The notes: a model not told the origin generated them from the letters alone. A stretch of DNA of 64,000 nt from Candidatus Bathyarchaeota archaeon (GCA_963807605.1 CAWECG010000001.1:320001-384000), one strand, 5' to 3'. Shown: positions 26,910 through 58,957, numbered from the stretch's first letter. A program made the numbers and translations.

Positions 26910-27066
26910 CAGCGCGCGCTATTCAAATTTCGTCTGCCAATGAGCTAGAAAGAACTGTTAAAGCACCGTCTGACGGCTGCTCCCTCAGAAGAGGAGGCAT
27001 GATAAACTAATGTATCACAGAAAATCTTGATAAATTCGCGTCTTGATATCTAATGTGTAAAGGCGT

Positions 27067-27897
27067 ATGGTTTCTAGAACTGTTTTAATTGCTGCGGTCA
27101 TTGTTGTACTGTTAGCGGTTGGCGGTTGCATGTACATTCTGAAATCTTTGACACCCGCTCCCGTGTCGACCCCAGCTACAGGAGAAAGCTCCGTATCGAC
27201 ATCTACGCCTGCTTCACCAACAGAATATAACATTACCACAGAAGACGTGACCTATTTTGCCAATACTACTGGCTATCTTGCAAAGCCAGCTGTATCCGGT
27301 AATTATCCCGGTGTGATAATGATTCACGAGTGGTGGGGACTTACAGAGAATATCAAGACGAAGGCTAGGCAACTTGCGTCGCAGGGCTACACTGTCTTAG
27401 CAGTTGACCTCTTCAATGGCGAGATTGCTACAACATCTGAGAGAGCGATGCAGCTTGTCTCTTCTCTCGATCAAAACAAGGCTCTGGAGAACATGAGATC
27501 GGCCATCGTGTATCTGAGAACCAGTGAAAATATCAGCAAGGTAGCCTCATTGGGTTGGTGCTTTGGTGGCGGACAGTCGCTACAGCTCGCTTTAAGCGGT
27601 GAAAGACTTGATGCTACAGTCATTTACTATGGGCAACCAGTTACTGATGAGTCGAAGTTGTCCTCCATAAATTGGCCTGTACTCGGCATTTTTGGCGATA
27701 AAGATATCACTATACCAGTCAGCAAGGTGAAGGAATTCAGTTCTATCTTAGATAAACTTGGAATCGAGAATGAAATCTATATTTATCCAGGTGTCGGCCA
27801 TGCTTTTGCAATCCCTTCTAATCCCAACTATGCTCCGAAAGAGGCTGCGGACGCGTGGGAGAGGACGTTGGTATTCCTCAACAAGTACCTCAAATAG
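27067..27897 (+). CDS. Dienelactone hydrolase family, N-terminal membrane anchor
   Basis: HEWWGL, GWCFGG, GHAF. Confidence 0.9.
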   Translation: MVSRTVLIAAVIVVLLAVGGCMYILKSLTPAPVSTPATGESSVSTSTPASPTEYNITTEDVTYFANTTGYLAKPAVSGNYPGVIMIHEWWGLTENIKTKARQLASQGYTVLAVDLFNGEIATTSERAMQLVSSLDQNKALENMRSAIVYLRTSENISKVASLGWCFGGGQSLQLALSGERLDATVIYYGQPVTDESKLSSINWPVLGIFGDKDITIPVSKVKEFSSILDKLGIENEIYIYPGVGHAFAIPSNPNYAPKEAADAWERTLVFLNKYLK

Positions 27898-28221
27898 CCT
27901 CTTTCTGAAGCAAACGTGAACTGGTCTATGTGATAGTTCATTCTCTCAACGGTTTTGTTGAAGCAGAGGCTAACCTTTAAGGAACGAGTAATAGCGTGTT
28001 AAGAATTCGATTGACTGTGACTTCGCCTAGCGCGCTATGCTGCGACACGCCAATAGCAAAGACTACGCGGACGTTGCATAATGCAGAGTGTCTTAGGTGA
28101 GAGCAGTAGTCGTGGCGATCCGTGTCCATCAACGACCGTTTAAATATGATTGCGCATCGTAATGGTCCGTAAGCTCCCAGAATTAAGGGACGCATCACCC
28201 CACAGCTGGGTTCAGAATCAC

Positions 28222-29421
28222 ATGGATTTGCTCTTAGATATCGCTTCATTCCTGATATATGCTATAGGCTCGATCCTGCTGGCCGCATCGATCTTCTACT
28301 TGATTACGGTGTGGAATGTAAGAAGACCCAAGCTGGAGTATACTTTCTTTCCAAGAGTGAGTTTGATGGCTTATGCTTGGCAGTCAGGGAACGTCATTGA
28401 AAGAAAAATCAACAACTTCCTTGAACAGGACTATCCACGAGACAGGTTTGAAGTCATAATATATGACAATGACTCGACTGATGAGACTAAGGACATTTGT
28501 CTCAAATATGAAAATTTGGGATTGATTAAGTACTATAGGTCGCTGAGAGCTTACGATAGGAAAGCCCCAGTTCTAGATCAAGCGATTGAAGTTGCCACGG
28601 GAGAGATAATAGCATTAACGGATCCGGATGGCGTGTGTGAGAGAGACTGGGTAAAGAAGATAGTTCAACCGTTCAAGGACCCTAAGGTTGGGGGTGTCGC
28701 CGGAATCACGCATTGCGGTAACTATTACGTGAATTTGTTCACGAAGCTGCGGGCGATAGAGGATGAATGGTGGTACAACATATCAGTTCTCGGAAAGAGT
28801 GGGAAGGTGAGGATTAGCAGTTTTGAACCGTTGTGTGGGGCTAACTACGCTTTAAGGAGAGCCGCTTGGGAGAGTGTGGGGAGAACCCATGGAAAAAGCC
28901 TGGTAGAAGACTATGAGATGACGTTGAGACTTTACGGAAAAGGTTGGAAGATGGCATGTGCCGATGCTAATGTTTGGCAGGAAGAGGTTGACGATGTGGG
29001 CGAGTACATAAGACAGAGAAGGAGATGGTATCAGTCCCCTATTCAGAAAATAGTTGAGGGCAAAGGGAAACTCGATAAGACGTTAGGGGCGCTTCCAATC
29101 TCGATGCAGGCGACAGCCTTTCTATCATTACTCTACTTAGTGATAGTATGTGGGTACCAGGCTATTCGTGATGGACTGGGGTTCTTCAGCCTTATCTTTG
29201 CCATGCCTCTCTTGCTCACGTACTTTGCTCTCGCACTTGGACTGATTAAAGTCGGCAAGGCCAGTTTGCTAAGGTATGTACCTCTTTTTTTGGCATTTGA
29301 TAGTGCATTGCAATTGATCATTTTCGCAGAGACAAAACTCAGATTCGGAGAAGAGCGACACTGGGTTCAGCTGGCCAAGGGAGAGTACTATCACTCGGGC
29401 GCCGCGATGAGAACGGACTAA
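28222..29421 (+). CDS. GT2 family membrane glycosyltransferase
   Basis: DNDSTD, TDPD, VED, QRRRW; TM helices. Confidence 0.9.
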   Translation: MDLLLDIASFLIYAIGSILLAASIFYLITVWNVRRPKLEYTFFPRVSLMAYAWQSGNVIERKINNFLEQDYPRDRFEVIIYDNDSTDETKDICLKYENLGLIKYYRSLRAYDRKAPVLDQAIEVATGEIIALTDPDGVCERDWVKKIVQPFKDPKVGGVAGITHCGNYYVNLFTKLRAIEDEWWYNISVLGKSGKVRISSFEPLCGANYALRRAAWESVGRTHGKSLVEDYEMTLRLYGKGWKMACADANVWQEEVDDVGEYIRQRRRWYQSPIQKIVEGKGKLDKTLGALPISMQATAFLSLLYLVIVCGYQAIRDGLGFFSLIFAMPLLLTYFALALGLIKVGKASLLRYVPLFLAFDSALQLIIFAETKLRFGEERHWVQLAKGEYYHSGAAMRTD

Positions 29422-29553
29422 CATCATCAAGCGCACGATGTCAGACCGATGTCATGACCGAATCTAGGCTTTAGTTCAACAATATCCTTGACCGCAATCA
29501 TAAGCTTGACACGGAAAAAAGGAAAAGGGATACTTCGCGCGCGCTAGCTCGTG

Positions 29554-30219
29554 CTAGTCTACCCATGTGGTAGCCTCTGTAACCTTCGGGCGCTCGATTG
29601 GAGGAGGGGTTGCGCTTGCATAGCCTATAAGACACCCGTCCAAAGCGAATTCCCCATACGGAATACTCAGTAAAGCACAAAACTGTCTATCTTCTGCCAT
29701 TTGTGCTGTCACTGAGAACAATCGGAATCCAAGACCTAGCGCGGTTGCCTTCAGCCACATGTTCTGCAGACAGTGTGCAAGAGACTGGAGTTCTACCGCT
29801 GGGATCCCCTTCCGCTCAGCAACTATGACATAGTACGGAGCCCTGCCAATATCGGGGATACCATGCTGACTCATCATTTCCAGTGTTCGTGCGAAAGCTC
29901 GCCCATGTTGTTGCAGGAAAGGATTCTGCTTCATTTGTCTACCAAATTGCTCACTTAGAATTGCTACTCTGCGCTTGATGACTTCGCTCAGCTGTTTTGT
30001 TACCTGACTATCACGCGGGACCACAACGAATCGGCGGTAGTCTTTTCCAGATACAGCCAATCCCGCAAACGGTGCTAGCTGACCAGCTCGAATAATCTGC
30101 TCGATGAGTGTCCTCGGCGGAATGTCGCGTTTGAACTCCCTAATTGTACGTCTTGCCTCAAGAATGTCGTCAAGTGCCTCATTGTGCTCCTTACTGGTAA
30201 CCGAAGCCATGAGTATCAT
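29554..30219 (-). CDS. Nitroreductase family protein
   Basis: RRTIREF, QNMWLKATALGLG. Confidence 0.88.
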   Translation of the reverse strand: MILMASVTSKEHNEALDDILEARRTIREFKRDIPPRTLIEQIIRAGQLAPFAGLAVSGKDYRRFVVVPRDSQVTKQLSEVIKRRVAILSEQFGRQMKQNPFLQQHGRAFARTLEMMSQHGIPDIGRAPYYVIVAERKGIPAVELQSLAHCLQNMWLKATALGLGFRLFSVTAQMAEDRQFCALLSIPYGEFALDGCLIGYASATPPPIERPKVTEATTWVD

Positions 30220-30334
30220 CCTCTAACCCTTACAGTCAGCAGAATAGCGCGTGCTAGTTGAAAAGTTTACCCAACATCAATCACTGTCGGATCTCTTGGT
30301 GCGCGCGCTACAAAGAACCGAGCTTTCAGTCGTT

Positions 30335-30931
30335 TCATAACTGAATATTGCTTGGAGCTGTGCGTTTGTGAGATTGGTTGTAGGCAATCTTCCGCCATCG
30401 CTTCTGCCAGCTCTTCCAACCGGTTTTCACAAGCTGCTCTCGAACCTTAGGGTCCTCGCTAACCCATTGAAGCAACGCCATAAACCTATTTCTTCCACTC
30501 TCTGGATCCAGCACCTTGGCAGGAACTCCCGTCTCCACACACCATTTGACGTAGCTTCTCTCGACCATTTCTTGAGGCTCTCCAGTCACCTCTACTTCTA
30601 CCAGGTTGTAGCCATTCTCATTCAAGTAGGCTCGAACTGCTGATAAAACGTACCCCGAGCAGACTTTGAACCGTGTGTATTTGTCAGCTCTCATCACCTC
30701 GATCATCTTGCGGACAATCTCAACAGCTTTCTCCAGGTACAGCTTTCTCTCGAATAATGGAGGCTGGAAGAATGTCACTGGAATCCTCCTCGCCATATAC
30801 CGTCCAGATGACAGTTTCAAGCCGCCTACAACAACGCCAAGAAGCAGATCTCCCCAGCCGCTGTCATCAATCACTATGTCGTCTGCTGTTCTTCGAAATC
30901 TATCCAAAGTAGTCGTCTTCAGTGCATCCAA
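30335..30931 (-). CDS. Conserved hypothetical protein, possible RNase H-like fold
   Basis: IVIDDSGWGDLLLGVVVG resembles the RNase HII first motif. Confidence 0.55.
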   Translation of the reverse strand: MDALKTTTLDRFRRTADDIVIDDSGWGDLLLGVVVGGLKLSSGRYMARRIPVTFFQPPLFERKLYLEKAVEIVRKMIEVMRADKYTRFKVCSGYVLSAVRAYLNENGYNLVEVEVTGEPQEMVERSYVKWCVETGVPAKVLDPESGRNRFMALLQWVSEDPKVREQLVKTGWKSWQKRWRKIAYNQSHKRTAPSNIQL

Positions 30932-31152
30932 CCAACCTCAGGCTTCGTAGCTTTTCTCGTTGAGGTTGAAACCGAAGATCCTGATTAAAAAAGTGTAAGC
31001 ATACTTTGCCTATTATGCATTGTTTCCTTGGGATTCCAGCTACAGACCAACGCGCGCTAGAGGTACTTCATGTTCTCTTTCAGGAATAGTTTGTCGGCTC
31101 TGTTCGGTTTGTAGCTGTTCGATGAGGTTGTTCGGCATCGGCGGATGTCTAT

Positions 31153-31599
31153 TCAGAGCATCCTGTATCGTGGACCCCAATACAGATAGCTGGCCGCCAT
31201 TACAAGTGCTGTAATAGCGATGATTGGAAAAACCATGGACCATGTCATCCTATGCTCTGGTTTTGCTAATACAAGTATCACCGTCATAATAGATATGGTA
31301 ACGGCGGCTACGATAAGCATTCTAGTAACGAAACTTATCATATGCGCCTTCGGGTTTGTCGAGCGCTGCCCCGCAAACATGGCTAGAGTGAGGACTAGAA
31401 TTACTGCGCCCACGAAGGCAATGCTGTTTCCTGTGGGCGTGATGTAGATGTTTGTTCCCTGAAAAGTGTGATAGTACGTGAGGCTTGAGTTAGCGGGAAT
31501 CATAGGAGTAGAGCCAAAATCGAGAGTTCGAATGTACAACCCGACAAGAATCAAAACACATCCAAGAATTAGGAGTGACGCAACAATTCGTTTGCTCAT
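31153..31599 (-). CDS. Membrane protein (4 TM)
   Basis: Hydrophobic segments; coupled to upstream RHH gene. Confidence 0.6.
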   Translation of the reverse strand: MSKRIVASLLILGCVLILVGLYIRTLDFGSTPMIPANSSLTYYHTFQGTNIYITPTGNSIAFVGAVILVLTLAMFAGQRSTNPKAHMISFVTRMLIVAAVTISIMTVILVLAKPEHRMTWSMVFPIIAITALVMAASYLYWGPRYRML

Positions 31600-31736
31600 T
31601 TCTTTCCCGCCCTCTTGCCGAGATATTCTCGAAGTGCTTCGTTGAAAATCGCGGTGTCCGTTTTGTCATGCTCTATAGCGTAGTGTTGCGTTTCTCGAAG
31701 AAGACTCTTTGGTAATCGGAAGGTTGTTTTCGTCAT
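31596..31736 (-). CDS. Ribbon-helix-helix (CopG-like) protein
   Basis: MTKTTFRLPKSLL...IFNEALREYL. Confidence 0.7.
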   Translation of the reverse strand: MTKTTFRLPKSLLRETQHYAIEHDKTDTAIFNEALREYLGKRAGKK

Positions 31737-31902
31737 TTCCTGCTCAGTAGGCAATTGCGTTTTCCCTATAGTGATAGATAGCATGGCTAGAATATGTGCT
31801 TTGCCATATCGCTGGTTCGCCATACACACTTAAGTATGCCATACTCAGCTCCCTCTAACCTCTAAAGATAAACAGCTTTCCCCAACATTGGGGAAGGAAT
31901 TG

Positions 31903-32145
31903 TGTGTGCTCACCAAGGGACACCACCACACAGAAAAATGACGGTTCAAATTCGCCTGCTCGCACCAATGAAAACACATACAAGTGCTGAAACGAGAGTT
32001 CAATTTCCAGAGCTCGCACCAGTAGTACCACACACAAAGAAATTGTTAGAACGACGGTTCAAATTCAGGCGCTCGCACCATTGATGCCACACACACCACA
32101 TTTTTCGACCGAACGACGACGGCTCAAGTTCACTCGTCTACACCA
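31903..32145 (+). repeat. Tandem array of four tRNA-3'-end-like 27-bp repeats preceded by a core site
   Basis: Units at 31941, 31995, 32054, 32119: GGTTCAAAT-N12-ACCA, period 54-65 bp. Confidence 0.8.
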
Positions 32146-32201
32146 AAAATAAGACCGCAAGTCTCTTATTCGGAGCTCTCAACTTCATGACCGGTTGATC
32201 T

Positions 32202-32738: not shown

Positions 32739-32841
32739 ATGATGTCGTTACTCTGCCACAGATCCCTCCTCTCGTCTTCAGTTTTTTTGGTTCTGTTATT
32801 CCCCACGCGGGTCGAGTGGTGCGCGCACTCACGAAACTATG

Positions 32842-32931
32842 CGGTTCAAGTTGGGTGGGCCGCACCGTTGAGAACACACACAAAATTGTAACCCAGCAGT
32901 TCAAATCCGGATGCTCTCACCAAGATGGCAC
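32842..32931 (+). repeat. Two further tandem tRNA-3'-like units
   Basis: CGGTTCAAGT-tgggtgggccgc-ACCG; AGTTCAAAT-ccggatgctctc-ACCAAGATGGCAC. Confidence 0.7.
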
Positions 32932-33125: not shown

Positions 33126-33760
33126 TTTATCTCCTTTTCAGGCAAGATTCTCTTAACCGTCAGGTAAGTCTGGGTTATGTTGCAAATAAGGGCTTCCAAT
33201 AGCGGTCGATGGCAGTCACATCCCGCTTAACGAATAGTTCTGTCACCGCCTTTAGTACCAGATCTCTGTTGTTCATTTGGATTTCCTCTAGTTCAACTAT
33301 TCGGCATGTTCCTGCTGGGTCTTACTTTGGCTTGTAGGCGGGTGTGAAGATGGCGTGGGTTGGGTAGATTTCTACTTGGGGGTCCCCTTGGATCCCGATC
33401 TGTTTCATGCCTGACATAAGTCTGGTCTTGACGAAGTCGTCGTCGCTCACCATCTATAGCACACACGCATCCGAATCTTCTATAGACGTGAAACCTGAAA
33501 ATATTTAGAACCAAAGTGGATAATGCTGAGACGCGCGCGCGATGCGAAGAGGGCCTGATACGACGTAAGTGGTGGGACAATGATGCAATATAACGCACGC
33601 TCATAGTCATATCCTAGGTTACGCTAAATTTCGACTAGCACGCGAGTGACAGGATAGACCTGAGAAAGCGGCTGAGGCTCCAGCGCTCACTAAATTTAAA
33701 TCCAGAATAGTTGTATTATAAACACCTGCAACTGTAAGCCGCCTTAGGGGGATCCACAAA

Positions 33761-34120: not shown

Positions 34121-34662
34121 GTATGTTTTGCAGCGCGCGCTTTACGTAATTTCACATGATCTTACACAAAAAGACACAACTTTACACACATAACCCAAAG
34201 AATTTTTTTTGTATTCAAAATTGTGTGTTTTTATGCGTTTTCACATAAAACTTTCCTTACCAATACTGTGAAATTATGTGTCCAATGTTGTAAAGTTATG
34301 TGGTTTTGCGTATTGTATAGGTGCTGTCTTACTGTGCCATGGTCATTACCGTGGACAACATCGAGAAGACGCTATTAGTGCCATGACTCCCTGTACTGTG
34401 TGAGCGCGCGCGAAATATTTCCAATGTGTATAGAGACCCTAATGATCATGCTAGCTTATCCATAGAATGTGTGCCCTAATGGTTGCCATTCATCATTAGA
34501 AACTGATAGTTAGAGTGATTCACGCCTGAAGATCTGAGGCGAGCTTTAGCGAGCAATATTGTGTGTGCGCACCACTAGACACACCTTCCTTGCCCCAGAA
34601 ACTAATACCTGCCTTACGCTATGGCAACTGTTAGATATCCTTGAACCGCAGAACAGCAGTTT

Positions 34663-38352: not shown

Positions 38353-38451
38353 GCGTGCGTAGCGAGCAGTTATCATTGGTGGTGGTGGGTGGTGTGTCCC
38401 TTGGTGAGAGCATCCGAAATTGAACCGTTAGGCTCTACTTTTAGCGCGCGC
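38353..38451 (-). repeat. Composite site: GCGTGCGTAGCGAGC + (GGT)n + tRNA-like core + GCGCGCGC
   Basis: Closely matches 51732-51806. Confidence 0.8.
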
Positions 38452-38767
38452 TAGAACGCACGCGTCTTCTTGGGATACTCTGGTATTCTCTAGACAATTT
38501 CCTTAACTGTCTTATGAGGCTGCCAACTTTCTTTTTTCTGAGTTTGTCTTTTCCAACTGTTTGTTGGACAATCTCTTGGAGGTTGTATTTGAGGAATTTA
38601 CTTATCGAGAGGGTGGGATTTTGTTCGACAAGTGCGTGGAGAGCGCTGTCAACTATGATGAATTTAGCGTCTTTTTTGAAAAGGGGATGCATGACTGAGT
38701 CGATCATCTTGTTTAGCTGGCCTTTCGAGTAAGTTCTACCTTGTGTTTCGTCAGCCAAGAGCAACAC
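38441..38767 (-). CDS. Hypothetical basic protein ending in a GCGCGCGC junction
   Basis: ORF; C-terminus SSAR* is encoded by the junction. Confidence 0.4.
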   Translation of the reverse strand: MLLLADETQGRTYSKGQLNKMIDSVMHPLFKKDAKFIIVDSALHALVEQNPTLSISKFLKYNLQEIVQQTVGKDKLRKKKVGSLIRQLRKLSREYQSIPRRRVRSSAR

Positions 38768-39326
38768 TATTACCTTGACGTTCCTGGCTCCTTTCTCTGA
38801 TTAAGCCGCCTTATGTCTCATTCTGTCTTGCCATGTCCTGCTATGTTCCACATGTCCCACGTGTCCCAAGTACTTTTTAGATGATTAAAAAAATCTTTTT
38901 ATGTGTAAGAGTCTCCGGTTTTCATCAGATTCTAGTGTCCCACTGTCCTCATTGTCCAGATTGTCCCTGTGAGAGGTTATGCGCGCGCGTACGAAAACTA
39001 ATCTTCAACTTAAGAAAGAAGACGACCACAAATAGGCTAGCTACCGGCAGCTAAATCTAGAATAATGATAGGCGAATGGAGGGGCTTAGTGTGTGCTATT
39101 CTTACAGGCACGCTGAAGGTTTTGTATCCCGGCTGAGCAAGCAAGAAAGACTGCTGCAAGAAGAGAGGAGAGTCTAAGATCTTGCCCAATAGGGAATCTT
39201 TCTAATCGTATGACAGAAAGCGCTAAGTTTTGTCCTAAATTGGCAGAGCGATTTCGATAAAACTGTTAAAAACATTCAAGCCATCCGTTGAGGATCGACC
39301 GGCTGTTTCGATAGGTGGACAAGCTC

Positions 39327-39520: not shown

Positions 39521-40646
39521 GAGCTTCTTGCAATATTATATTTTCTGTGTTAATTTTGTGAACTGGATTGGTGACCGCATTTTATCGATGTGTCCGTGCT
39601 TGATCGCGGATAAGGCAGTTGCCAGTAGAGCCAGCAGACAGAGAAGTACATGTGATATGACGTTTCTTAGGCCGCGTGTTCGAAGCTGAGACAATCCGAA
39701 GTGTGTCTTGAGTCTTGAGAATGTTCTCTCCACTGAGGATCGACGTTTATACAGTTGTTTCAGACGGGCAGGTCCGTGTGAGCGGAACTTCCGGTCGATT
39801 CGTAGAACCTGTTTGCCCTTCATCTGGTTTCTAGGGTAAGGTATGATTGGTTCTATGCCCATAGATCTTGCCTTGTCTCTGAAAGCTTCGCTGGAGTATT
39901 GTGAGTCTGCAGTCATGCTCTTCCACCTATGTTTCTTCTTCAATGCTTTATGGAGGAGGTGGGGTGCAACTTTTTTCTCATTTACATTTGCAGGTTCTAT
40001 GGTGACTGCCCGCGGCATCTCGCTGATGGTGTCTACAGCAAGGTGTATGCCGTAGCCTAAGATCACGTTTCTACCTTGTTTTCGTAATCTGGCTTCAGAA
40101 TCGGATAATCCACACTGGGTATTGTGAGGATCTCTTCGACTGTAAGCTTTGATGAATGTGACGTCTAACGCTAGGATTTCAGAGTCCAGAATGTCCATGT
40201 GGTCAAGCTGTTTGATCAGACGGTTCATGAGGCGGTGAAATCCTTGAGGGCCTATTCTACGTCGAAACCTCAGAAGTATTGATGGGTGATATGGATTCTC
40301 TGATTCCTTGATGTCGCAGAGTTTGCAGAGTTCACCGTCGCTCCATAGAAGTCGGTATAGTTCCTCGTAGCTTTCTATGTGTCTTAGCCGTTTGACAAGC
40401 TCTGCTTTGAACATTCCAAGTAAATTTCTATGGGGTCTGCCGACGCTGCTTCTTCTTCCATAGCTTCTTTCTAAGACTTGTTCTACAAACGTTAAATCCA
40501 AAGCCTGAAACAGATCATACAGAGCCTTACACTCGCTCACTTCTTTTTCACCAGAAACGGCATGAGTGGGTGTAAAGCTCATCGATCTTATGATCAAAAA
40601 CACGTATACATCTTCATGTTAAGCCCAAGAATATTGCAAGAGGCTA
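39521..40646 (-). mobile_element. IS copy 2 (1126 bp), GCGCGC target duplication
   Basis: Same TIRs; GCGCGC at 39515 and 40647; transposase 39536..40603. Confidence 0.92.
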
Positions 40647-40688: not shown

Positions 40689-41147
40689 CTAAACCGTCTC
40701 TTCACCAATTACTCTGGTCATTCCGATTTGTCTTGCTTTTCTTACTACTCGTAAGCGTCTCCACCAGTCACGCAGAAAGGTACCTTGATAATCGTATGCC
40801 TTAGCGCGCGCGTGGTCTATTCCTAGGCCACGGAATTCTGCTCGTAACTTCAGAACCGTGATAACCACCTTGAGGGCCTTGCCTCGAGCAGGCGTACCAA
40901 CCTTCTGCGCCTCATAGTTCATCCAGGCAGCGGTCAGAGCCTGATCAACCTGAAGCAGAACTTCCTCACGGACTGATGGTGTCGCAAGTGCGTGGCGGCG
41001 GGCTCGCTCAGCTTTGACCCAACGCTGGACCGTCTTTTCACTAACACCAAACCTCTCAGCTATCCTCGAGGACATCATCTTGAACAGGGCAAGATCGAAA
41101 GATTCCGCCTGCTTCGCTAGGTCAGTGCCCCACTTTGTTCTGGTCAT
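40689..41147 (-). CDS. HTH protein (phage small-terminase-like), probably chimeric after GCGCGCGCG at 40804
   Basis: IAERFGVSEKTVQRWVK HTH. Confidence 0.55.
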   Translation of the reverse strand: MTRTKWGTDLAKQAESFDLALFKMMSSRIAERFGVSEKTVQRWVKAERARRHALATPSVREEVLLQVDQALTAAWMNYEAQKVGTPARGKALKVVITVLKLRAEFRGLGIDHARAKAYDYQGTFLRDWWRRLRVVRKARQIGMTRVIGEETV

Positions 41148-41994: not shown

Positions 41995-42831
41995 TCAGAT
42001 TCCTTTTAGGGCCAGGACTTCTTTGGCAGGTTTTCTATCTTTGTTGCAGCTGATCAATCGCGGAGCATCCAAGAAACGCAGTTCATATCCCAAGTCCTCG
42101 TAGAGTTTGCATATTCTTGGGGTTGCCTGATTGGAGAGTACAACCGGGCCGGAATGCTCTGTCAACCAATTTGCCAGGCGCACCTGATCGTCCCAGGAGA
42201 ACCCTTCCTTAGAGTACTGGGTAAATATCACATCATAAGGCGGATCCGCATACACAAAATCATCTCGAGAAAGTGAGACCTTCTCGAAATCTCCGGTTGT
42301 AAACTCCCATTCTTGGAAAACCCGTTTGTACGGGGTAAAGTCGTGTGCGTAGTTGATCTTTTGGTATCGACCAAAGGGAACATTAAATTCCCCTGACCGG
42401 TTAAACCGGCAAAGCCCATTATAGCAGGTCCTATTAAGATAATAGAATAACTCAGCCGCTTCTTTGCTGCTGGCTTTTCCAGTCTTTACAAGTTGATTGA
42501 ATCGTCTTCGATGCTGATAGTAGAGTTTTCTATTGTTAGCCAGGGGTATGTCTGTTACAAGGCCCTTCTTGAGCCTTTGAAAGAAGTTTATGGCGTGATT
42601 GTTGATGTCATTAAGAAGAGCCTGAGCAGGCATTAGGCCTAGAACAACAGCAAGACCCCCACACAGCGGCTCAACAAGCCTACGGTCTCTGTAAGGCTCC
42701 CAGATTGGTCTCAGATAAGGAACAAGCCATCTCTTTCCACCAGCCCACTTCAACGGGGGTCTAAGCGATACACTCTCGTAATGGGAACGGTGTGAGGTCT
42801 GGCTCAAGCTTGACTCCATTACGATTGACAC
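41995..42831 (-). CDS. Dam/D12-class N6-adenine DNA methyltransferase (orphan copy)
   Basis: LKWAGGK, YNGLCRFN..GEFNVPFG, DPPY. Confidence 0.92.
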   Translation of the reverse strand: MSIVMESSLSQTSHRSHYESVSLRPPLKWAGGKRWLVPYLRPIWEPYRDRRLVEPLCGGLAVVLGLMPAQALLNDINNHAINFFQRLKKGLVTDIPLANNRKLYYQHRRRFNQLVKTGKASSKEAAELFYYLNRTCYNGLCRFNRSGEFNVPFGRYQKINYAHDFTPYKRVFQEWEFTTGDFEKVSLSRDDFVYADPPYDVIFTQYSKEGFSWDDQVRLANWLTEHSGPVVLSNQATPRICKLYEDLGYELRFLDAPRLISCNKDRKPAKEVLALKGI

Positions 42832-43543: not shown

Positions 43544-43732
43544 TTGTCAGAAGACAAGAAGAAAACTGGAAAGATAAGCAAGCGCGAGAATATCATTCAA
43601 CTCTTAAAGACTAACAAACTGTCAAATGCACAAATAGCTGCCATGCTTGGTACTGACGAGAAATATGTTTCTCAGGAGCGCGCGCTTCGTACCAGTCTCC
43701 GAATACGGAGAATCGAGTTCAATTCCGGGTAG
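43544..43732 (+). pseudogene. Short HTH protein, cut at GCGCGCGC (43678)
   Basis: KRENIIQLL..LSNAQIAAMLGTDEKYVSQ. Confidence 0.55.
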
Positions 43733-44945: not shown

Positions 44946-45193
44946 TCATTTAGGGACGACGAATGCTAATAAGACCTTGGAGGCTGCTTTGACCAAGTGC
45001 GCGCACCGTGATACTAGAGGTAAGTAGAAGCGCGCGCTTACGTATGACATTTTTCAAATCTATTGCAACCTAGAACGTATGTTGTTTGCTTCCGTTCTAT
45101 GATTCATCAGGGTGAAGCGAACTCGGCGCTACACTCCGCGGGGAATCTATATTTGGAAGTAGGACTAGGGCTACCGTAGTTCAACTCGGGCTT

Positions 45194-45548
45194 CTAGTCC
45201 TGTTTACTTCCGCATTTTCTGCAGAAATGTACGGTTACAGGTATGCGGGCTCCGCAGTTTAGACAGAATTTGGTTTCTTCCGCCGTAGTAACTGGTGCGG
45301 GAGACGGCCCACTCGCTTGTCCTTCTGCTGCTGTTCCACCTTTTCTCTTACCTTTCCTGCGTCGAACAAAAAAGACGACTCCAATAATTATGATTAGTCC
45401 AATAATCACGATAAAAGAGAATGCGGTTACTGAAAGACCCAATATGCTCATTGATGTCGATGCAGCCGTAGTCGTTATAGTCTCGTTCGAGGATTCTGAG
45501 GTTGTGATTTGTGAGGTTGTGGTTTGCGGGTTTGTTGGAACAGTTTGA
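45194..45548 (-). pseudogene. C-terminal fragment: Ser/Thr linker, TM helix, double zinc ribbon; begins at GCGCGC 45549
   Basis: FCLNCG..FCRKCG; frame open with no start codon up to the junction. Confidence 0.6.
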
Positions 45549-45754
45549 GCGCGCCCGGGCGTTACAAGGTTGCGAATAATTTACCGGACAACATTAGACT
45601 TAGGCACCTCAGGGTCACACTAGCCACTCAATAAAGTGAAGGCTCCAGAACAACGGATACAAAGCAAAATATGAGTTCTCCTAAACATATGTGATCAATC
45701 AAGGAGCTCCAGTGGTGGTCCGAACCGATGGAGTAAAGAAGAGATTATGTCAGC

Positions 45755-46621
45755 ATGAAACATGTGGTTAAATTCCAAGTCTTAACTGAAAGGCAGGAGT
45801 CGAGATTGCGTCAAACCTTAGGTATAACTCGTTTCGACACTACTGTTTCACTTAGACCCCCGCTTAAATGGGCTGGTGGTAAGAGATGGCTTGTTCCTCA
45901 CCTCAGGCCAATTTGGGAACCTCATAGAAATCGTCGGCTCGTTGAACCTCTGTGCGGCGGGCTTGCTGTTACCTTGGGCTTGATGCCTACTAGCGCTCTT
46001 CTTAATGACATCAACAATCACGCCATAAACTTCTTTCAAAGGCTCAAGAAGGGACTTGTGATAACCGTTCCCATGGAGAATAATCAAAAACTCTACTATC
46101 AGCATCGAAAACGATTTAATGAGCTTATCAAGACTGGCAGAGCTAACAGTCAAGAATCTGCCGAGTTATTTTATTATCTTAATAGAACTTGTTACAATGG
46201 ACTATGTCGTTTCAACCGGTCTGGAGAATTTAACGTACCTTTTGGACGGTACAAGAAAATCAATTACGTACGCGATTTCACCCCCTATAAACAAGTTTTC
46301 AAGGAATGGCTGTTCACAACAGGAGATTTCGAGGATGTCTCTTTAGATCCGAATGATTTTGTGTACGCAGACCCACCTTACGATGTGGAATTCACCCAAT
46401 ACTCCAAAGAAGGATTCTCATGGGAGGACCAAGTGCGTCTGGCTAAGTGGCTCACAAAACATTCTGGCCCAGTTGTACTTTCCAATCAAGCCACTCAGAG
46501 GATATGTGGACTGTATGGTGAGTTGGGGTACAGCTTGCGTTTCTTGAACGCGCCTCGAATGATTAGTTGTAAGGGAGATAGAACTCCCGCTAGGGAAGTC
46601 TTGGCTCTGAGAGGTATTTGA
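45755..46621 (+). CDS. Dam/D12-class N6-adenine DNA methyltransferase
   Basis: Same motifs; roughly 80% identical to 41995..42831. Confidence 0.92.
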   Translation: MKHVVKFQVLTERQESRLRQTLGITRFDTTVSLRPPLKWAGGKRWLVPHLRPIWEPHRNRRLVEPLCGGLAVTLGLMPTSALLNDINNHAINFFQRLKKGLVITVPMENNQKLYYQHRKRFNELIKTGRANSQESAELFYYLNRTCYNGLCRFNRSGEFNVPFGRYKKINYVRDFTPYKQVFKEWLFTTGDFEDVSLDPNDFVYADPPYDVEFTQYSKEGFSWEDQVRLAKWLTKHSGPVVLSNQATQRICGLYGELGYSLRFLNAPRMISCKGDRTPAREVLALRGI

Positions 46622-46794
46622 AATATGTCTCCTCGTGACCCAGGGACTGAGAGTGTGTTAGAAAAAAGATGCTTTCAGGTGAAGGCCCCTAGAGTCATAA
46701 GTTGCGTGGGTACTGGATGTGGCATGATTTCGGAGTTTGTTATTGGTAACTATTTGACACCAAAAGCCAAGCACAATCCATTGGTTGACATTGG

Positions 46795-48081
46795 TTGATG
46801 AAGATGCCTCGAAAGGTCGAGAAGTGGGCAGACATAGTCCGACAGCTTGGGCTAGACATATCAAAACCAGTCAATCCCGTGACTGCGAAACAAATCAAGG
46901 AAATCACTCACGAAGAACCTAGGCTCATGGCTAAGATGGATACTATAGAAAGCCTTCCATCGATTTTCAGAGAGAATGGGCTTTTCTTACTACCCGCAAG
47001 CAGAACCGAGTATTTAATTGTGAAAGGCAAAGGCTACCACAAGTTAGAAGATTTGCCCACCAATGTCTTGGTACATGAGACTCGTTATCTCTTTCCGTCA
47101 TCTGCATTAGGTGTTCAAAGCGAGGGAATTTACCTTGATTATGCGTACTCTTCTGGGTTGATAGGAAAGATCAGCGGTGGCGGCAACCTGATACTCGCGT
47201 TCCGCGGGAGAAGAACGACTCCAAGATTCAGTTTCAATGTAAGCGAACAGGTCATTAGGGTCGATGGGGCGCAAATCGAGGTAGATGGCGCATATGAGAG
47301 TTCTGAAGAAGTTGTGCTGGTGGAATCCAAACTCGGTATCCCCAGCTCGTTCAATATCCGACAGCTTTACTATCCCTACAGGACGTTTAACGATAGAAAA
47401 CATCCAAGGAACTTTTTCTTCTGTTTCGAGCAGATCCGAAATGAGTACTTGTTTTGGGAGTATGATTTTAGACCACATACGAGTTTCGAGTCTATCGAAC
47501 TTTTGCGCGCGTTAAGATGTCAAGTGAAAGTAACAAATCCCGTTACTGCGGATGATTACAGGGATGTAATGCCTGCCAGAAAAATCATCCCGCCTCAGGC
47601 CGACTCCGTCGATAAGATAATTGAGCTTCCATTCAGAATTTCCGAAGGATACGACACATCTGAGAAGATGACAAGAGCCTTTGGATTTGTTCAACGACAG
47701 AGTTCGTATTACCGACAAGCCGCTGAATTGTTGGGACTGGTGGAGTCAAAAGATGACAGGTACGCGCTCACTGACTCGGGAGAGCGCTATATCAAGTTGC
47801 TGCCAGAAGAAAGGAACAACTACATCTGCCGCCTGCTACTCAAGTTTCCCATTATGAATGATATATTCCTCCAATTATCTATCAAACGGGGCAGCCATGT
47901 CACCAAGCAGAAAATTATAGAGATCATTAGGGAACGTTCACAGTTGACGGGCACGACCCTCACAAGACGTGCCCAGACGATTATCTCGTGGTTTAAGTGG
48001 ATAAGAAACAATTTAGGAATCGTTGAAGTCGACAGAAAAGGCAATGTTTGGATCTCGAAGCAATTACCACAGTCTCAATGA
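46795..48081 (+). CDS. Probable type II restriction endonuclease partner of the methylase
   Basis: EPRLMAKMD, QIEVDGAYE...VESK, FNIRQLYYPYR, C-terminal winged helix (RQSSYYRQAA). Confidence 0.75.
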   Translation: MMKMPRKVEKWADIVRQLGLDISKPVNPVTAKQIKEITHEEPRLMAKMDTIESLPSIFRENGLFLLPASRTEYLIVKGKGYHKLEDLPTNVLVHETRYLFPSSALGVQSEGIYLDYAYSSGLIGKISGGGNLILAFRGRRTTPRFSFNVSEQVIRVDGAQIEVDGAYESSEEVVLVESKLGIPSSFNIRQLYYPYRTFNDRKHPRNFFFCFEQIRNEYLFWEYDFRPHTSFESIELLRALRCQVKVTNPVTADDYRDVMPARKIIPPQADSVDKIIELPFRISEGYDTSEKMTRAFGFVQRQSSYYRQAAELLGLVESKDDRYALTDSGERYIKLLPEERNNYICRLLLKFPIMNDIFLQLSIKRGSHVTKQKIIEIIRERSQLTGTTLTRRAQTIISWFKWIRNNLGIVEVDRKGNVWISKQLPQSQ

Positions 48082-51379: not shown

Positions 51380-51872
51380 CCATATTTTGTATGTTGCAGT
51401 TTATTGTTTGTTACTTTCTATGCTGCTTACTGCCAGTTTTGTATTAGTTTTAATTGTTTTTTAGGTCAAGTTATGTCTTTCTTTATGTCTTTGTTTGTTT
51501 TGTTCTAAGTTGGTTTGTATTGTTTAGGTTCAAGTTTCCCAGCATGTTTGGTATTGTGGATTTTCCGGTTTTTCCATGTGTTGATTTAGGTTTGAAATAA
51601 GGCATTGTCTATTCCTGTATTGTATGGTAAACCAAAAACCCCGCAAACCATACATAACATAAACCACAGAAACCAGGAACCGGTAAACTTCCAACTATCA
51701 CTGCTATACCATGCTGCTGCTGGTATGTTCTGCGAGCGTAGCGAGCAGTTATTTTGGTGGTGGTGGTGGTGTGTCCCTTGGTGAGAGCATCGTGATTTGA
51801 ACCGTTAGAGCAGACTATTTTTTTGTGTGTGTGTGCCATAGCTGGTGAGCACCACCACCACCACCACCACCA
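51380..51872 (+). repeat. Non-coding skewed element copy B plus composite sites, (GGT)5 and (CAC)7 tracts
   Basis: Homology to 37515-37920 and 38353-38429. Confidence 0.8.
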
Positions 51873-52175: not shown

Positions 52176-52189
52176 AGTGCGTGTGCGCA

Positions 52190-52858: not shown

Positions 52859-53034
52859 TTAACATAACCTCATGTCTGGTTAGTCCATCTCTGGGGCTTA
52901 TTTAGCTTGATTGAATTCTTCTGGTTTCAGCTTAGGATGGGTTCTCTTTTCTATTCTTCCCATGATACTTCTATTTGGGGGGGCTTTCTTCGCTCCCAGT
53001 GGCTAGCGGAGCGTATTCCAGCTTCTTCTCGCCG

Positions 53035-53117
53035 GCGAGCGTAGCGAGCCATTAGATTATGTTGTGTGTGTGTGTGTGTGTGTGTGTGTGCTCACCAAGG
53101 GACACGATGCGCGCGCG
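53035..53117 (+). repeat. Composite site: GCGAGCGTAGCGAGC + (TG)14 + GTGTGCTCACCAAGGGACAC + GCGCGCGCG
   Basis: Direct reading. Confidence 0.85.
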
Positions 53118-53201
53118 TGATAGACCAGATAAAACCACCTTTGAACAAAATGTGCAAACCATGGAATCACAATCACCTTCCCAAATATCGATCGTTGCTA
53201 G

Positions 53202-53711: not shown

Positions 53712-53732
53712 GATATGACGGATTCAAAAGTT

Positions 53733-53936
53733 CTATAGCGAGGGCGTGTGCGCGTGTCTTTCTGAATGCAATTGTCCACCCGTTGCCCAATTGCTCTTTG
53801 GCGCCTCATAAATGACGATCTCGACTGCTTCCTTGGGAACCCCTAAATCTTCAAAAACTTTAGTTATCCCTTCGACTGTTTTCTTCTTGTTCTCAGGGCG
53901 AATGCCCTCCCAAACAGAAACTTGAACTATTGGCAT
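53733..53936 (-). CDS. 4-oxalocrotonate tautomerase family
   Basis: N-terminal Pro, NWATGG; GGTGA RBS. Confidence 0.9.
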   Translation of the reverse strand: MPIVQVSVWEGIRPENKKKTVEGITKVFEDLGVPKEAVEIVIYEAPKSNWATGGQLHSERHAHTPSL

Positions 53937-54108
53937 TTCATTTTCACCTAAAATAACACTTTGCTATTTGGCCTAATCAATATGTTCCCTCAATAAAGCG
54001 CACGCGTAGACGGAGAGATCATCATGCACAAACTAGACAAGACCACAGCGAGCGCTCAACAAATATAAGTATGCGAAGTAAAAGCTGTAAAAATAGAAGG
54101 CTGATAGA

Positions 54109-55083
54109 ATGGAAACAAAACGTCCTGAACATGTGCGAACCATTAGTATTGAAGAGCATTTCTTTTCCACAGCGTTCAGTAGCACCATTAATAGTAGCAC
54201 GCCCATTGGATTACCATGGGCGCAGCTGACCGACTTGGGTGCTGGCCGCTTGAAAGACATGGATGCGGGTGGAATCGATCTCCAGGTCGTTTCCCATAAT
54301 GTGTTTTCTTTTGAGGGGGGCGACATCGTGCAGCGTGTTCAGGAAACAAATGATCAACTGGCTGCCGCGGTTAGAAAATATCCGACTCGTTTCGCAGGTT
54401 TTGCCACCCTGCCTATGACCAACCCGGAGGATGCGGCCAATGAACTGGAAAGGACAGTACGCTCGTTTGGATTTAAAGGCGCTATGATTAACGGCATAAC
54501 GAATGGACTTTTTCTAGATGATCCTTCATTCCTGCCTATTTTTGAGCGCGCCATCGCACTAAGCGTACCAATTTACCTGCATCCTGGTTTTCCACCCGCG
54601 CCAGTACGAGAGGTATACTATGCAGGTCCATTTGATCCTAGTGTGAACTTCATCTTATCGAGGCAAGGCTGGGGCTGGCATTCCGAGGTCGGACTGCATG
54701 CACTGCGGCTGATCATATCAGGTATCTTTGACCGCTTGCCAACATTGCAGATCATTATCGGACACATGGGAGAGATGATTCCTTTTATGCTCAGTCGTAT
54801 TGATGATACCCTTACACCAGTCGCTAAGCATCTGAAACACAAGGTATCAGAATACATCCACGGGAATTTTTATATCACGACCAGCGGTTTCTTTACGAAT
54901 CCGCCACTCTTGACTGCTCTACAAACTATAGGCTCCGATCGCATAATCTTCTCAGTTGATTATCCTTATAGCTCCAATGAGCAAGGGCGAGCGTTCCTGG
55001 ATAATGCTCCAATCAGTCCGGACGATAAGGCGAAAATCAGTCATCTCAATGCAGAGCGACTTCTGGGGCTCGCGAGAGAATAA
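54109..55083 (+). CDS. Amidohydrolase-2 family (aromatic acid decarboxylase-like)
   Basis: EEH, YLHP, GHMGE, FSVDYP. Confidence 0.9.
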   Translation: METKRPEHVRTISIEEHFFSTAFSSTINSSTPIGLPWAQLTDLGAGRLKDMDAGGIDLQVVSHNVFSFEGGDIVQRVQETNDQLAAAVRKYPTRFAGFATLPMTNPEDAANELERTVRSFGFKGAMINGITNGLFLDDPSFLPIFERAIALSVPIYLHPGFPPAPVREVYYAGPFDPSVNFILSRQGWGWHSEVGLHALRLIISGIFDRLPTLQIIIGHMGEMIPFMLSRIDDTLTPVAKHLKHKVSEYIHGNFYITTSGFFTNPPLLTALQTIGSDRIIFSVDYPYSSNEQGRAFLDNAPISPDDKAKISHLNAERLLGLARE

Positions 55084-55228
55084 TTGGACCAACGTGAGGA
55101 TTCGAACAGCGCGCGCTAGCCGTATTGGGCGCTGACGCCCGCGGGACAGAAGGAGTAGGCGTTCACCCTATGAAGAATATTCTTCTGAACCCTGACAGCG
55201 CGCGCTCACCCATTTTTATTCTCTATCT

Positions 55229-55879
55229 TTAAGGCCCACCTGTGAAATATGCCATGACAGTGTGATCATAGTTCATCACGATTGTAACCGAGGCAGAGGG
55301 GGCGTAATTAACACCGTCAATAGTCCAGTAGCTTAAGGCATAGCCGTTATTGGGGTAGGCGGTTACCGTCACAACTGATCCAGCAGAATACGAGTAAGTC
55401 CCAATTGATGGAGAGGTAACACCCTGTCCGCTAGTGTATATCGTAAGCTGAGCCGTTACCATTAAGCCGTTGTTATAGAGGTTCCAATTGTAAGGGTGAT
55501 GAGTAACGCGCGTGCGCGCTAAACTGGGGGTAGCCCCGCCAATTGTTGCTTGGGCCTGCGTCGGAGTCGTTATCACGTTCCAAGACTTGGTCCCGCTCAA
55601 AGACTTGGTTCCGCTCCAATGTGTGGGTGCGGAGAAGTTTCCATGCGTGGGATAGGTCGTGTTAAGGATTCTACCCTCGTTTGGTTTCGTTTTATCTGGC
55701 GCTGCATTTACTGTCGCTACAAGTGTGGCGCTCGTCGCTAGCGCCGAACCTATAACTACTACGATCATCACTGCTACCGTAAGTGGGGCGATCTTAATTT
55801 TTGCTCTCATTTTTCCCACCATACTGTAATAATAATGGATATCTAGGTATGTGGGTTGTGGAACTTTGTGAGTGAACAA
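55229..55879 (-). CDS. Secreted protein with InlB B-repeat-like C-terminal domain, possibly chimeric at 55507-55519
   Basis: Signal-like segment; GSVVTVTAYPNNGY..SYWTIDG. Confidence 0.55.
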   Translation of the reverse strand: MFTHKVPQPTYLDIHYYYSMVGKMRAKIKIAPLTVAVMIVVVIGSALATSATLVATVNAAPDKTKPNEGRILNTTYPTHGNFSAPTHWSGTKSLSGTKSWNVITTPTQAQATIGGATPSLARTRVTHHPYNWNLYNNGLMVTAQLTIYTSGQGVTSPSIGTYSYSAGSVVTVTAYPNNGYALSYWTIDGVNYAPSASVTIVMNYDHTVMAYFTGGP

Positions 55880-55980
55880 TGTTAACTTACTAGTTATGTA
55901 AGAGTGCGCGCGTCCACAAAGAACCGGCGTCTCCTAGACTTCTTATGGGTCTTTCCGGTATCCTTTCGATCTTCTTGATT

Positions 55981-56036
55981 GTGTGTGCCTTAGCTGGTGA
56001 GCACACACACTAAAACGACTGGCTCGCTACACTCGC
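55981..56036 (-). repeat. Composite site (GCGAGTGTAGCGAGC...GTGTGCTCACCAGCTAAGGCACAC)
   Basis: Direct reading. Confidence 0.8.
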
Positions 56037-56090
56037 CGTCGATACTCAGACAAAGAACAGACTCTGAAGTTTTTCTAATAAGCCCCAAGC

Positions 56091-57545
56091 TTATCCAGTT
56101 TGTTTTGTGCCACATTGACTGCAGAATTCAGAGCCAGGAGATAATTCGGCTCCACACTTGACGCAGGAAGTGGGAACTTCTACAAACTGCTGACTTAGCG
56201 TCGCTTGTTTGGGTCTATGCGTGATTCTTGATTCTCGTCTCCGAAGGAAAACCAAAACGACAACAGCAGCTACAACTACTCCCACGATTCCATAAATGTA
56301 TAAGTTGTCAATCACGAACCCCCCAATCGCTACGGCAGGAACATCCTCTCCGTTAGCGATTGCTTCTTGTGACAGTTTGATGTACCTGTCCGCGTAAGGG
56401 CTGCCAGGATACAGTGTCTGGACCTCTTGAAATTGCTGGATCGCTAGTGAGTAGTGCTGATTCCAGTAGTAATTGAGCCCCTGCGCCCAGTAAGTATCTA
56501 TTGGTCCTCTGGTATTCTGCACGTTTACCTGGCTCATGAAGATTTTTGCAACATTTATTGGTATTAAAAAGTTCACGTTGCTCAGTTCGCCCCCTCCCAC
56601 AGGGTTTCCCGTTCCAAGGGTAGCTATTCCGATAACGTTTCCTTGAGCGTCGATTACCGGTCCGCCGCTGTTCCCATGATGGATTGATGCGTCAGTCTGA
56701 ATGAAGGTGATTTGGCCCTGACTCGTCTGGGCTGGCTTCAATGCGCTGACGGTTCCCTGAGTTATCGTCGGTTCAAGGCTCTCCAGCGAATTTCCTGAAG
56801 ATTGGGCTTGAGACACTATGCCGGGGTATCCGATGACCACTAATGGTTCTCCAACTTGGACTGTTTCCGAGTCTCCGAGACGTATAGTCGGCAAGCTGTA
56901 ATCTACATTTACCTTGATAATGGCTACATCCATCGCACCGACTTGGCCGTTGGTTACTACATTCGCGATAGCTGCATTAGCTACGATCTTTGTAATGGGC
57001 CCGTTGGATTGGGAAAGCGGGAACACGACAGCGTCGAGCACCTGCTCGTTGGTGAATTTCCCATTTGTAAGAAAGTACTGTTCAAAGGCTGCTTCAATGT
57101 TGTTGTACTGGTCTTGAGTAATCTGCCCGTTCGTCACAAGAGACTGGTAATTCTGGGCACATTGTTGGGCGAGAGAACTTATGTACTCTGCCTGGCTTTC
57201 TTGGGAGGTTGCAACATGGGCGTTTGTTACTATGTAACCGTCTGGCGTGACTATGAAGCCTGACCCCCAGGCCCCCCGTTTGAGACTGGGAGGTTAAATA
57301 CTTCAGCTGGTGAATATGGTTTCACAACATAATTACCCTGGCTGTCCGTACTGAGGGCGGTGTCATATTTGGGACCTGTGAAGTTGGCTGTATACTGATT
57401 GTAGATTAGGACCACAGCCGGTTCGTTCAGATTGGCAATCATCTCCGTGGTCGTAGGCTCGGAGCGGTTTTGGGCAGAGACTTGCCCGACCGCTGAGAAA
57501 TACGTGAGCGTTAAACCCAGCAGTACTATTAATGCAACTTTCAGT
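56091..57545 (-). pseudogene. Trypsin-like (HtrA-type) membrane serine protease, frameshifted in G6/G5 tracts near 57270
   Basis: GSGFIV..TNAHV, DVAIIK, GNSGGP, TM and zinc ribbon; split into ORFs 57251..57442 and 56091..57137. Confidence 0.8.
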
Positions 57546-57870
57546 CTTAGCGTATCGAGACGATCCTTTGAAGATTTAGTTTGATATTTGTACTTAACCT
57601 TCCCATGAAATTAGTATTATGTTTTATCCCCAACATCTTTCAGTATGTTTAGGTCTTTGAAGTATACGTCAGCTGGGTAGAGATAACCTACCCCTTGGCG
57701 TGGTCGCTGGTAGTTCCAGTAGTTCACGAACTGTTGATGGGTCGGATACATCCAGGCTTCGTATTGGTAGGCTTTGGAAGGCTTCTATCTTTCCTATGGT
57801 TGATGGCGCGCGCGTAAAGACTATAATACGCGTCAAGGGCGAATCACAGCCACAAGGAAGTAAAAGCAAG

Positions 57871-58712
57871 ATGAACTGGAAAATCCATGTCTTGTATTTA
57901 GGAGAGCTAACCACTCCTAAAGGGCTTTTCACACCAGGCCTCGACGCGAACCTACTTCTTAAAGTGCCATACCTTGGATATCTACTAGTTTCCGGGTCGA
58001 GAAAGAATTCCTTGTGGACACCGGTATCAACTCGCGTTTCGTCATCGAAAAAGCATGGGCCGGAGCTCCTGCAAAAGGGGGAGAGAAATTTCTCCTCGAT
58101 GCATTGGAGAAAAATGTTGCCCGCACTGAAGAGATCGAGGCAGTAATCTACACTCATCTACACAACGATCATGCGGGGAACTGCCATCTCTTCCCTATGG
58201 CCCGACATGTTTTTCATTACGACGAATGGGGTGAATTAGTAGACCCACTTCCCTCGATGCGGATCCGAAAACTCTTCGACCCCGACGTCATTCCTGTTCT
58301 TCAAAAATCTCGCTGCCTCAAAATAACTGATGACGGCGAGTTTACAGAAGGTATTCGACTTTACCACACCCCCGGTCACACCATCGGGGGACTGACCGTA
58401 GCAGTGGATACTTCCAATGGGACATACATCATCCCCGGAGATATCGTGAATATCTATCAGAATCTCTTCCCCAAAATGTCGTGGATGTTAGATCTTCAAG
58501 CAAAACGCATCAAGACAACACCCGCTCCAGAACCTTACGGCCCATTAGGCGTCCCCTCTGGGCTTGTGTACGATCACTATGCATGGTATCGGAGTATCTG
58601 GAAAATCCGCGGTATGCTCAAAAGCCCAAAGCACCTGTTGCCCTGCCACGAACCCGCAATATCAGGCAAAACCTTCCCAGGCGATTCAATAGACCTCGAG
58701 ATTCCTGAATGA
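57871..58712 (+). pseudogene. MBL-fold N-acyl homoserine lactonase family, 1-bp frameshift near 58010
   Basis: MNWKIHVL..PYLGYLL / VDTG..THLHNDHAGN..TPGHT..PGD. Confidence 0.8.
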
Positions 58713-58957
58713 GAGAAAACATAGGGAGCGCTGAATTAATCATCAACACGATCAGTTTCAAGATTCCATATCGTTTGAAGCCTGAAGATCTATGGTGCAT
58801 TTGAATTAGCTTCTGCGTGAGAGCAGCGCGCGCTACGCTAAGAAATAGTGGAATCAGTCCCTTGGTGGGCACACACCAACTAATCCAATCTGTCGCTAGT
58901 GCTTATTACGCGCACAAGTTTGTTCTCACCGACATGGCAGCAAAGACACGAATACTC

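Follow-up and report, generated by a model that had tools for sequence, protein, structure and literature searches.

A palindromic octamer of alternating G and C, (GC)4, recurs from position 26,912 onwards in a 64,000-nucleotide stretch of a Candidatus Bathyarchaeota archaeon genome (the window, G000:C1:320001-384000; the genome, G000, comprises 2.65 Mb in five contigs, and its relatives carry the Bathyarchaeia name). Judged from sequence comparison, this motif seems to be a scar, that is, filler put at DNA breaks by an end-joining route that would act via self-complementary GC tails, a reading to which a probability of about 0.6 is given. The scar points to an end-joining route that is undescribed.

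New sequence at the breakpoints

The motif is added at the joint, as the intact copy of a sequence is free of a GC run at the point where its scarred counterpart ends. Along 61 arms with a close paralogue in G000, identity is 0.79-0.98 up to position -2, falls to 0.49 at -1, and is 0.20-0.34, the level of chance, inside the run. The initial annotation of the window had proposed a symmetric crossover or insertion scar; the insertion scar at junctions stands, since homology to intact copies stops at the motif in G000, in its congener G001, and in the public sequencing run X1, whereas a crossover site as the origin does not, donors being motif-free at the breakpoint and chance-like inside the run. 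Neither equal motif density in core intergenic regions, nor homology continuing across the motif, nor unsupported junctions were observed. The scar is found where short stretches have been replaced, at deletions, at tandem duplications, and where unrelated DNA has been joined. When a single paralogue matches both arms, the run substitutes for 4, 5, 8, 17, 46, 252, or 1422 nt, and runs also join tandem duplications of 11 and 46 nt. At G000:C5:32982, a 15-codon (46-nt) tandem duplication is joined in frame by a scar and a 441-aa ORF is kept open, an example of how the scar route can extend proteins. Untemplated letters are, thus, found between arbitrary ends with loss or duplication at the joint, as in filler end joining.

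Breakpoints fall at arbitrary places, also inside genes, and delimit pieces of 80-500 bp or in-place replacements, and the whole-gene modules are probably joints spared by selection. An integron-like array of gene cassettes was rejected, since breaks lie inside genes and the units are not whole genes with fixed ends, and so was site-specific recombination, since donors are motif-free and no arms are conserved beyond 1-2 nt. Scar flanks in G000 are unique beyond these 1-2 nt, an adjacent A being common and T weaker, and clustering of the flanks revealed no hidden element ends. The scar is common to the scarred copy and its paralogue in 7 of 52 arms, and existing scars may be re-used at times. 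The palindromic nature of the motif would account for the joining in either orientation that had been claimed for it.

An independent strain offers a direct view of the process. A 3.8-kb contig from X1 (~98% alike) passes 26912, bridges 29537 and 30301, and stops at 31051; it has lost 515 bp (29652-30166) of the nitroreductase gene, with a fresh 10-nt scar in place. The bridged junctions and the fresh scar are, therefore, no assembly artefact, and scar formation is biological and ongoing. Moreover, G001 matches window positions 30310-31049 at 95%, and the match ends at most 2 nt from the motifs (30301, 31052) on both sides. Runs of at least 7 nt lie at 10 of 34 breakpoints when paralogues are at least 97% identical, and at 12/86 and 16/118 in the other counts, as against 0.6-1.4% of random places. 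Some 14-30% of recent breakpoints are thus scarred, so that this is a common route, one among several.

Throughout the genome, (GC)4 ranks first among 8-mers in over-representation, with 298 occurrences against 17.5 expected under an order-3 Markov model, that is, ~0.4 per 64 kb, in agreement with the rarity claimed initially for the window (46% GC). All 16 octamer positions reported there were recovered, with none before 26,912, and the ten variants given there comprise nine GCGCGC hexamers and, at 30247, the one-change variant AGCGCGTGCT. The motif had been taken for the mark of nearly every gene junction and, further, for the hallmark of an island. By hand count, it marks about two thirds of boundaries from 26.9 to 62 kb, the block at 46-52 kb being nearly motif-free, and the second view is contradicted by the 269 separate runs of G000, which are scattered genome-wide over regions of low coding density.

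End letters, a proposed mechanism, and its rivals

In G000, run ends that begin with G are preceded by A in 77% of cases and those that begin with C in 62%, compared with 31-36% for short runs, and in the Brockarchaeota genome G097 the A bias occurs at G-first ends only (81%). Runs of the G-G, C-C, and mixed types, of odd and even lengths, are all frequent, at about the proportions expected if the two ends were independent. In 32 arms the scar has A at -1; the donor base there is A in 20 of them and a different one in 12. Extra letters are missing in 22 of 45 arms, single in 14 (11 A, 3 C), and number 2-6 in nine. Separate tailing of the ends followed by annealing is a better fit to this pattern of end letters than a linker of fixed sequence or a target duplication.

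In the proposed mechanism, each broken end, preferably one that terminates in A or has first been given an A, would gain a short alternating G/C tail; as the tails would be self-complementary, any two tailed ends could anneal and be sealed, and the product would be a run 6-12 nt long, 8 being the commonest length. Joints that leave whole genes intact would survive, giving the appearance of gene modules, and a clade of insertion sequences (IS) would then exploit the scars as safe targets. The writer would be a nucleotidyl transferase of the AEP (primase-like) family, with a stand-alone PriS paralogue as the top candidate, which is the least certain step. Terminal transfer, annealing of ends by 2-4 G:C pairs, and break repair in vivo have been described for PriSL (PMC3333859, PMC12019639).

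Other origins of the run have to be weighed. A short palindromic oligonucleotide or RNA, such as a primase-made 9-12-mer or an existing scar, could be copied or captured as a bridge between ends, which would suit the narrow run length (exactly four GC units in 246 of 269 runs), and pairing of 1-2 bases to a TA-flanked template would favour the donor T at -2 (19/45) and A at -1 (25/45) that are seen. However, A precedes the C-first ends of G000 as well, unlike what one fixed template would leave, the phase preference varies by lineage, and copied flanks do not recur, so that a templated bridge is rather unlikely. Nearest to the initial annotation would be an integrase or Cas1-like enzyme that uses (GC)4 sites already there to insert arbitrary fragments, doubling the site as it does so, and thus generates arrays. 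Scars do cluster and bracket pieces, and some are common to paralogues, but replacements and tandem duplications occur at places without a prior site and neighbouring scars share flanks at the level of chance (35/134 vs 29.9, p 0.17), making this quite improbable. Pre-existing terminators, regulatory sites, or fragile Z-DNA tracts that attract breaks were also considered, given that, by crude ORF calls, 46 runs lie within 50 nt past a stop codon (7.7 expected) and only 10 of 269 deep in long ORFs (148 expected), a strong avoidance of ORFs. Nevertheless, by the same calls, 185 of 269 runs lie between genes, distant from stops and starts alike, intact copies are run-free, and runs are rare in gene-dense stretches (Spearman -0.41 for run density against coding density) and patchy within one genus; such sites are very doubtful as an origin. 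Although the exact strain is in no public run (best share 0.18), library or assembly chimeras are next to impossible, as independent contigs span window junctions, the motif is lineage-bound in genomes of many other projects, ORFs are avoided, and IS copies sit inside runs. The further public runs X2-X4, which contain small shares of the genome, served for coverage alone.

The IS copies themselves could be suspected as the source, the octamer being an excision footprint of IS5/IS1182-like elements with two GCGC duplications left behind. In the window, such an element of 1126 bp lies at 23581-24706 (+), with GCGCGC flanks read as a 4-bp target duplication within the scar, a second copy lies within a scar at 39521-40646 (-), and in the third, at 61542-62667 (+), the right duplication has one mismatch. 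These elements show the IS5/IS1182 traits of a DDE transposase, terminal inverted repeats, and target duplication, and the transposase falls below every NCBIfam family cut-off. The DDE elements of G000 form two groups of seven, all but one flanked by GC runs; in the group of the window, a 4-bp duplication inside the octamer fits 6 of 7 copies, among them one with ACGC at either side, and a 2-bp reading fits six as well. Homologues across Bathyarchaeia end alike, most of them flanked by GCGC runs. Yet a footprint needs a target in the donor, and the donors have none. Moreover, one transposase query run against incomplete genomes gave no match in scar-rich G003, G004, G007, G009, G010, G013, and G015, the element occurs in scar-poor G008 and G012, and at the IS copy on contig C5 the paralogue holds 5 unrelated bases where scar and IS now sit. 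Because the element does not track scar counts and this paralogue has no target, the IS is not regarded as the scar source; a footprint is very improbable, and most likely the IS clade targets scars and does not make them.

Distribution of the scar and candidate writers

Across genomes, the scar was counted as the A-flanked 10-mer. Counts of 16-131 were obtained for many members of the G000 family and, sporadically, in other families, so that 20 of 251 Bathyarchaeia genomes are scar-rich; most of the remaining genomes have 0-5. Beyond this class, the 10-mer is plentiful in one genus, in 7 of its 14 genomes, a genus including named Brockarchaeota, whose runs have the same flanks and are likewise missing from intact paralogues. 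The same scar is, hence, present in two archaeal classes, Bathyarchaeia and Brockarchaeota. No run longer than 6 was found in the 0.65 Mb of G005 examined, a genome generally poor in GCGC. In another family, a 10-mer excess, possibly of scars, was noted in G148 (22 vs 0) and G333 (90 vs 29).

The known machinery (Ku-LigD, PolX/TdT, reverse transcriptase, DinB) was rejected as the writer, since its distribution fails to track the scar. Reverse transcriptase was not found in G000 and is present in 2 of 61 genomes, and PolX is present in 4 of 61 and was not found in G001, G002, and G003. In small samples, the LigD polymerase domain was found in G000 alone among five genomes and not in scar-rich G004 and G052, and DinB was present in scar-poor G082 and G090 and not found in scar-rich G002, G395, and G204. 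Ligase and PolB counts show no pattern with scars. G000 carries Ku, the polymerase domain of LigD, and a split ATP-dependent ligase at G000:C1:589600-592300 (L023), in a scar-rich region. Replicative PriS was discarded because its tree, a quick one, follows host groups, and a second small AEP family because it occurs in scar-rich and scar-poor genomes alike. The proteins of this second family in Bathyarchaeia have ~260-270 aa (G000:C3:316900-317700; L117, L119, L121, L126, L130) and adjoin an ATP-dependent ligase in one family, and in the copy of G000 Asn stands in place of the first catalytic Asp.

The stand-alone PriS-like protein of G000 (297 aa, G000:C3:72234-73127), a family whose distribution follows the scar in part, contains the AEP motifs DxD, SGxRGFH, and hD together with a Zn site, and its structural model (pLDDT 85.9) matches archaeal PriS structures, with a PriS-like fold. 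It is not taken for the replicative PriS, as it forms a separate clade, scores below PriS cut-offs, and coexists with a true PriS-PriL pair elsewhere in the genome. The window itself holds a 5' remnant of the gene (~60 codons, 61110-61337, -), broken off without a GC run. In Brockarchaeota, the paralogue gene is fused into one operon with radA, the end of which it overlaps, and, in G097, lies behind dinB. It is present in 8 of 301 genomes of the phylum, 7 of those 8 being scar-rich, and, within the Brockarchaeota genus, in 6/7 scar-rich vs 0/7 scar-poor genomes (Fisher p 0.005; kin genomes are not independent). Among genomes reached via the paralogue gene, 13 of 18 have 11-118 scars (three were already in the genus survey). 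In Bathyarchaeia, the paralogue occurs in 4/20 scar-rich vs 8/231 scar-poor genomes (E 1e-12), and fragments appear at looser cut-offs in G003, G007, and G013. Proteome subtraction, covering 71% of G097 and 41% of G005, left 208 shared genes, in which the recognised accessory DNA enzymes are the PriS paralogue, DinB, a uracil glycosylase, and an SplB-like protein, a result that is not decisive.

Several points weigh against the end-joining route proposed here. The steps of tailing, annealing, and sealing are deduced only from what is left at the joint, and most recent breakpoints have no run, such as a local unscarred break at 61.16 kb of the window. The distribution of the scar is not mirrored exactly by that of any enzyme: at E 1e-12, 16 of the 20 scar-rich Bathyarchaeia, including the single-contig G395, gave no paralogue match, 8 scar-poor Bathyarchaeia hold the paralogue, whole or broken, and the co-occurrence counts are drawn from kin genomes that are not independent. 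We know of no AEP that writes alternating GC, and none was met in the literature searched. As the scar writer, the PriS paralogue is thus named only as a tentative candidate on the sequence data, and it may just be carried along in the same pool of mobile genes. A bolder scenario, in which a dedicated, horizontally moving primase-like enzyme would write template-free GC tails on any DNA end as universal sticky ends and, as a sequence-programmed joining system, would assemble islands in both lineages as mosaics of native and foreign pieces, with a transposon clade specialised on the scars, is speculative and at present rather doubtful.

Sites in the window, related systems, and wider meaning

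The first (GC)4 scar of the window (26912-26919) lies 2 nt past the stop of polX (25080-26909, +), a mere neighbour that was not found in most scar-rich genomes searched; the X1 contig aligns through this scar before a join to the GT2 region. A hexamer scar in a TA..TA context (28030-28035) separates DLH from GT2, and a (GC)4 scar spanned by the X1 contig (29537-29544) separates GT2 from the nitroreductase, the lost part of which (29652-30166) is replaced in the X1 strain by A plus alternating C/G. The one-change variant (30247-30256) is followed by a (GC)4 scar (30301-30308), bridged by X1, that is the left border of the module 95% identical in G001; a 7-nt run (31051-31057), where X1 alignment and G001 homology end, is its right border. 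As had been proposed, the motif lies on both sides of each of DLH, GT2, nitroreductase, and queC-queT. Beyond a hexamer variant (32821-32826), a 10-nt alternating run (33532-33541) stands in place of ~6 nt of a paralogue (C3:584.9 kb) that is collinear elsewhere, a (GC)4 scar (34133-34140) marks where a 97% paralogue, motif-free, stops, and three motif-free paralogues stop at a 9-nt run (34404-34412).

The reading of ORFs with an internal motif as truncated or chimeric held for two of them, in which paralogue homology ends at the motif: a (GC)4 scar (38444-38451) truncates ORF 38441-38767, its two arms matching different paralogues, and a compound run (55506-55519) lies within ORF 55229-55879, a chimeric ORF in which three paralogues start just past the run. 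No informative paralogue is available for the run (40804-40812) within ORF 40689-41147, for the (GC)4 scar downstream of queC (43678-43685), or for the hexamer immediately past the stop of ORF 45243-45548 (45549-45554). A further scar (38981-38989) lies at the far end of a 530-bp piece homologous to C3:795.6-796.1 kb, and a hexamer (44999) and an octamer (45030) lie upstream of queT (44999-45037). Paralogues stop a few bases short of a 9-nt run at 53109-53117, octamers at 55109 and 55198 enclose an 81-bp piece (55109-55205), and a 7-nt run (55906-55912) is spanned by one paralogue with a one-base variant. Finally, a 9-nt run (57806-57814) links arms with different paralogue matches, a (GC)4 scar (58826-58833) coincides with the end of paralogue homology, and two shorter runs (60215, 60435; 60215-60441) lie upstream of a second nitroreductase.

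A second dispersed repeat of ~55 bp resembles a tRNA 3' end (a T-loop-like word and CCA), followed by a CA run, and is often in tandem. It occurs in the window at 31900-32100, 32837-32924, 38388-38431, 51765-51870, 53083-53105, 55969-56019, and 60129-60208, has ~45 copies in G000, where it causes the excess of CA-repeat 8-mers, and is found also in G001-G003 and runs X1-X4, with none in the examined parts of G005 and G097. Rfam and ARAGORN scans of the window gave no hits, and ARAGORN finds just 9 tRNA genes in the whole of G000, a genome in which CCWGG is under-represented. Other features of the window include type I restriction-modification-like genes with a second hsdM fragment (10651-17748, an octamer-free block), a 703-aa protein with eight 40-aa repeats, a low-complexity stretch, and many G000 paralogues (18504-20615), and a 378-aa ORF without Pfam or NCBIfam match (21196-22332), which we take, as an impression only, to resemble a tyrosine recombinase. 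Two D12-class adenine methyltransferases lie in opposite orientation (41995-42831, 45755-48081), one of them followed by a DUF6996/6997/7226 protein.

With regard to known systems, Ku-LigD non-homologous end joining and the N-nucleotides of TdT/Pol mu likewise place untemplated letters at joins of arbitrary ends. These are random or single bases, whereas the scar is a near-constant word. Some IS elements target repeats such as REP or attC sites; the elements described here are, similarly, DDE elements with a 4-bp duplication in a recurrent non-coding word, the target in this case being a putative repair scar. The nearest known relative of the scar route would be the PriSL(X)-mediated microhomology joining of Saccharolobus, with which it would share archaeal primase-linked break repair, terminal transfer, annealing by 2-4 G:C pairs, and GC-biased insertions (PMC12019639, PMC3333859); however, PriSL insertions are mostly of 1-2 bp without a fixed word, whereas the scar has ~8 alternating G/C and is palindromic. 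HIP1 of cyanobacteria is likewise an over-represented palindromic octamer, but it is conserved within and between ORFs (PMC5861425), whereas the GC scar avoids ORFs, is unconserved between copies, and is new at breakpoints. A HIP1-like palindrome was rejected, as the scar is conserved neither at orthologous sites nor inside ORFs. DRT3 is described as performing a protein-directed synthesis of poly(GT/AC), an alternating dinucleotide made without a nucleic-acid template (PMC13314766, PMC13174585), and is a reverse-transcriptase defence system that makes free repeat DNA, while the scar is a genomic joint in a genome where no reverse transcriptase was found.

In the open literature searched, of partial coverage, no description of a near-constant palindromic filler or of the PriS paralogue was found; new here are its occurrence in a second lineage, the analysis of phase at the run ends, the survey of candidate enzymes, and the interpretation of the IS elements. 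The scar route is considered a variant of filler-DNA end joining and might count as a system in its own right should a dedicated writer be demonstrated. How broken DNA is joined in most archaea, without Ku-LigD, is an open question, and with a primase paralogue as the candidate the mechanism can be put to the test in vitro; an enzyme able to render any DNA ends cohesive would, if true, also be of interest to DNA assembly. Because its signature is near-constant, hundreds of past joins per genome can be mapped, so that the share of this route in gene loss, duplication, and gene capture becomes countable in uncultured archaea that are abundant in sediment and soil.

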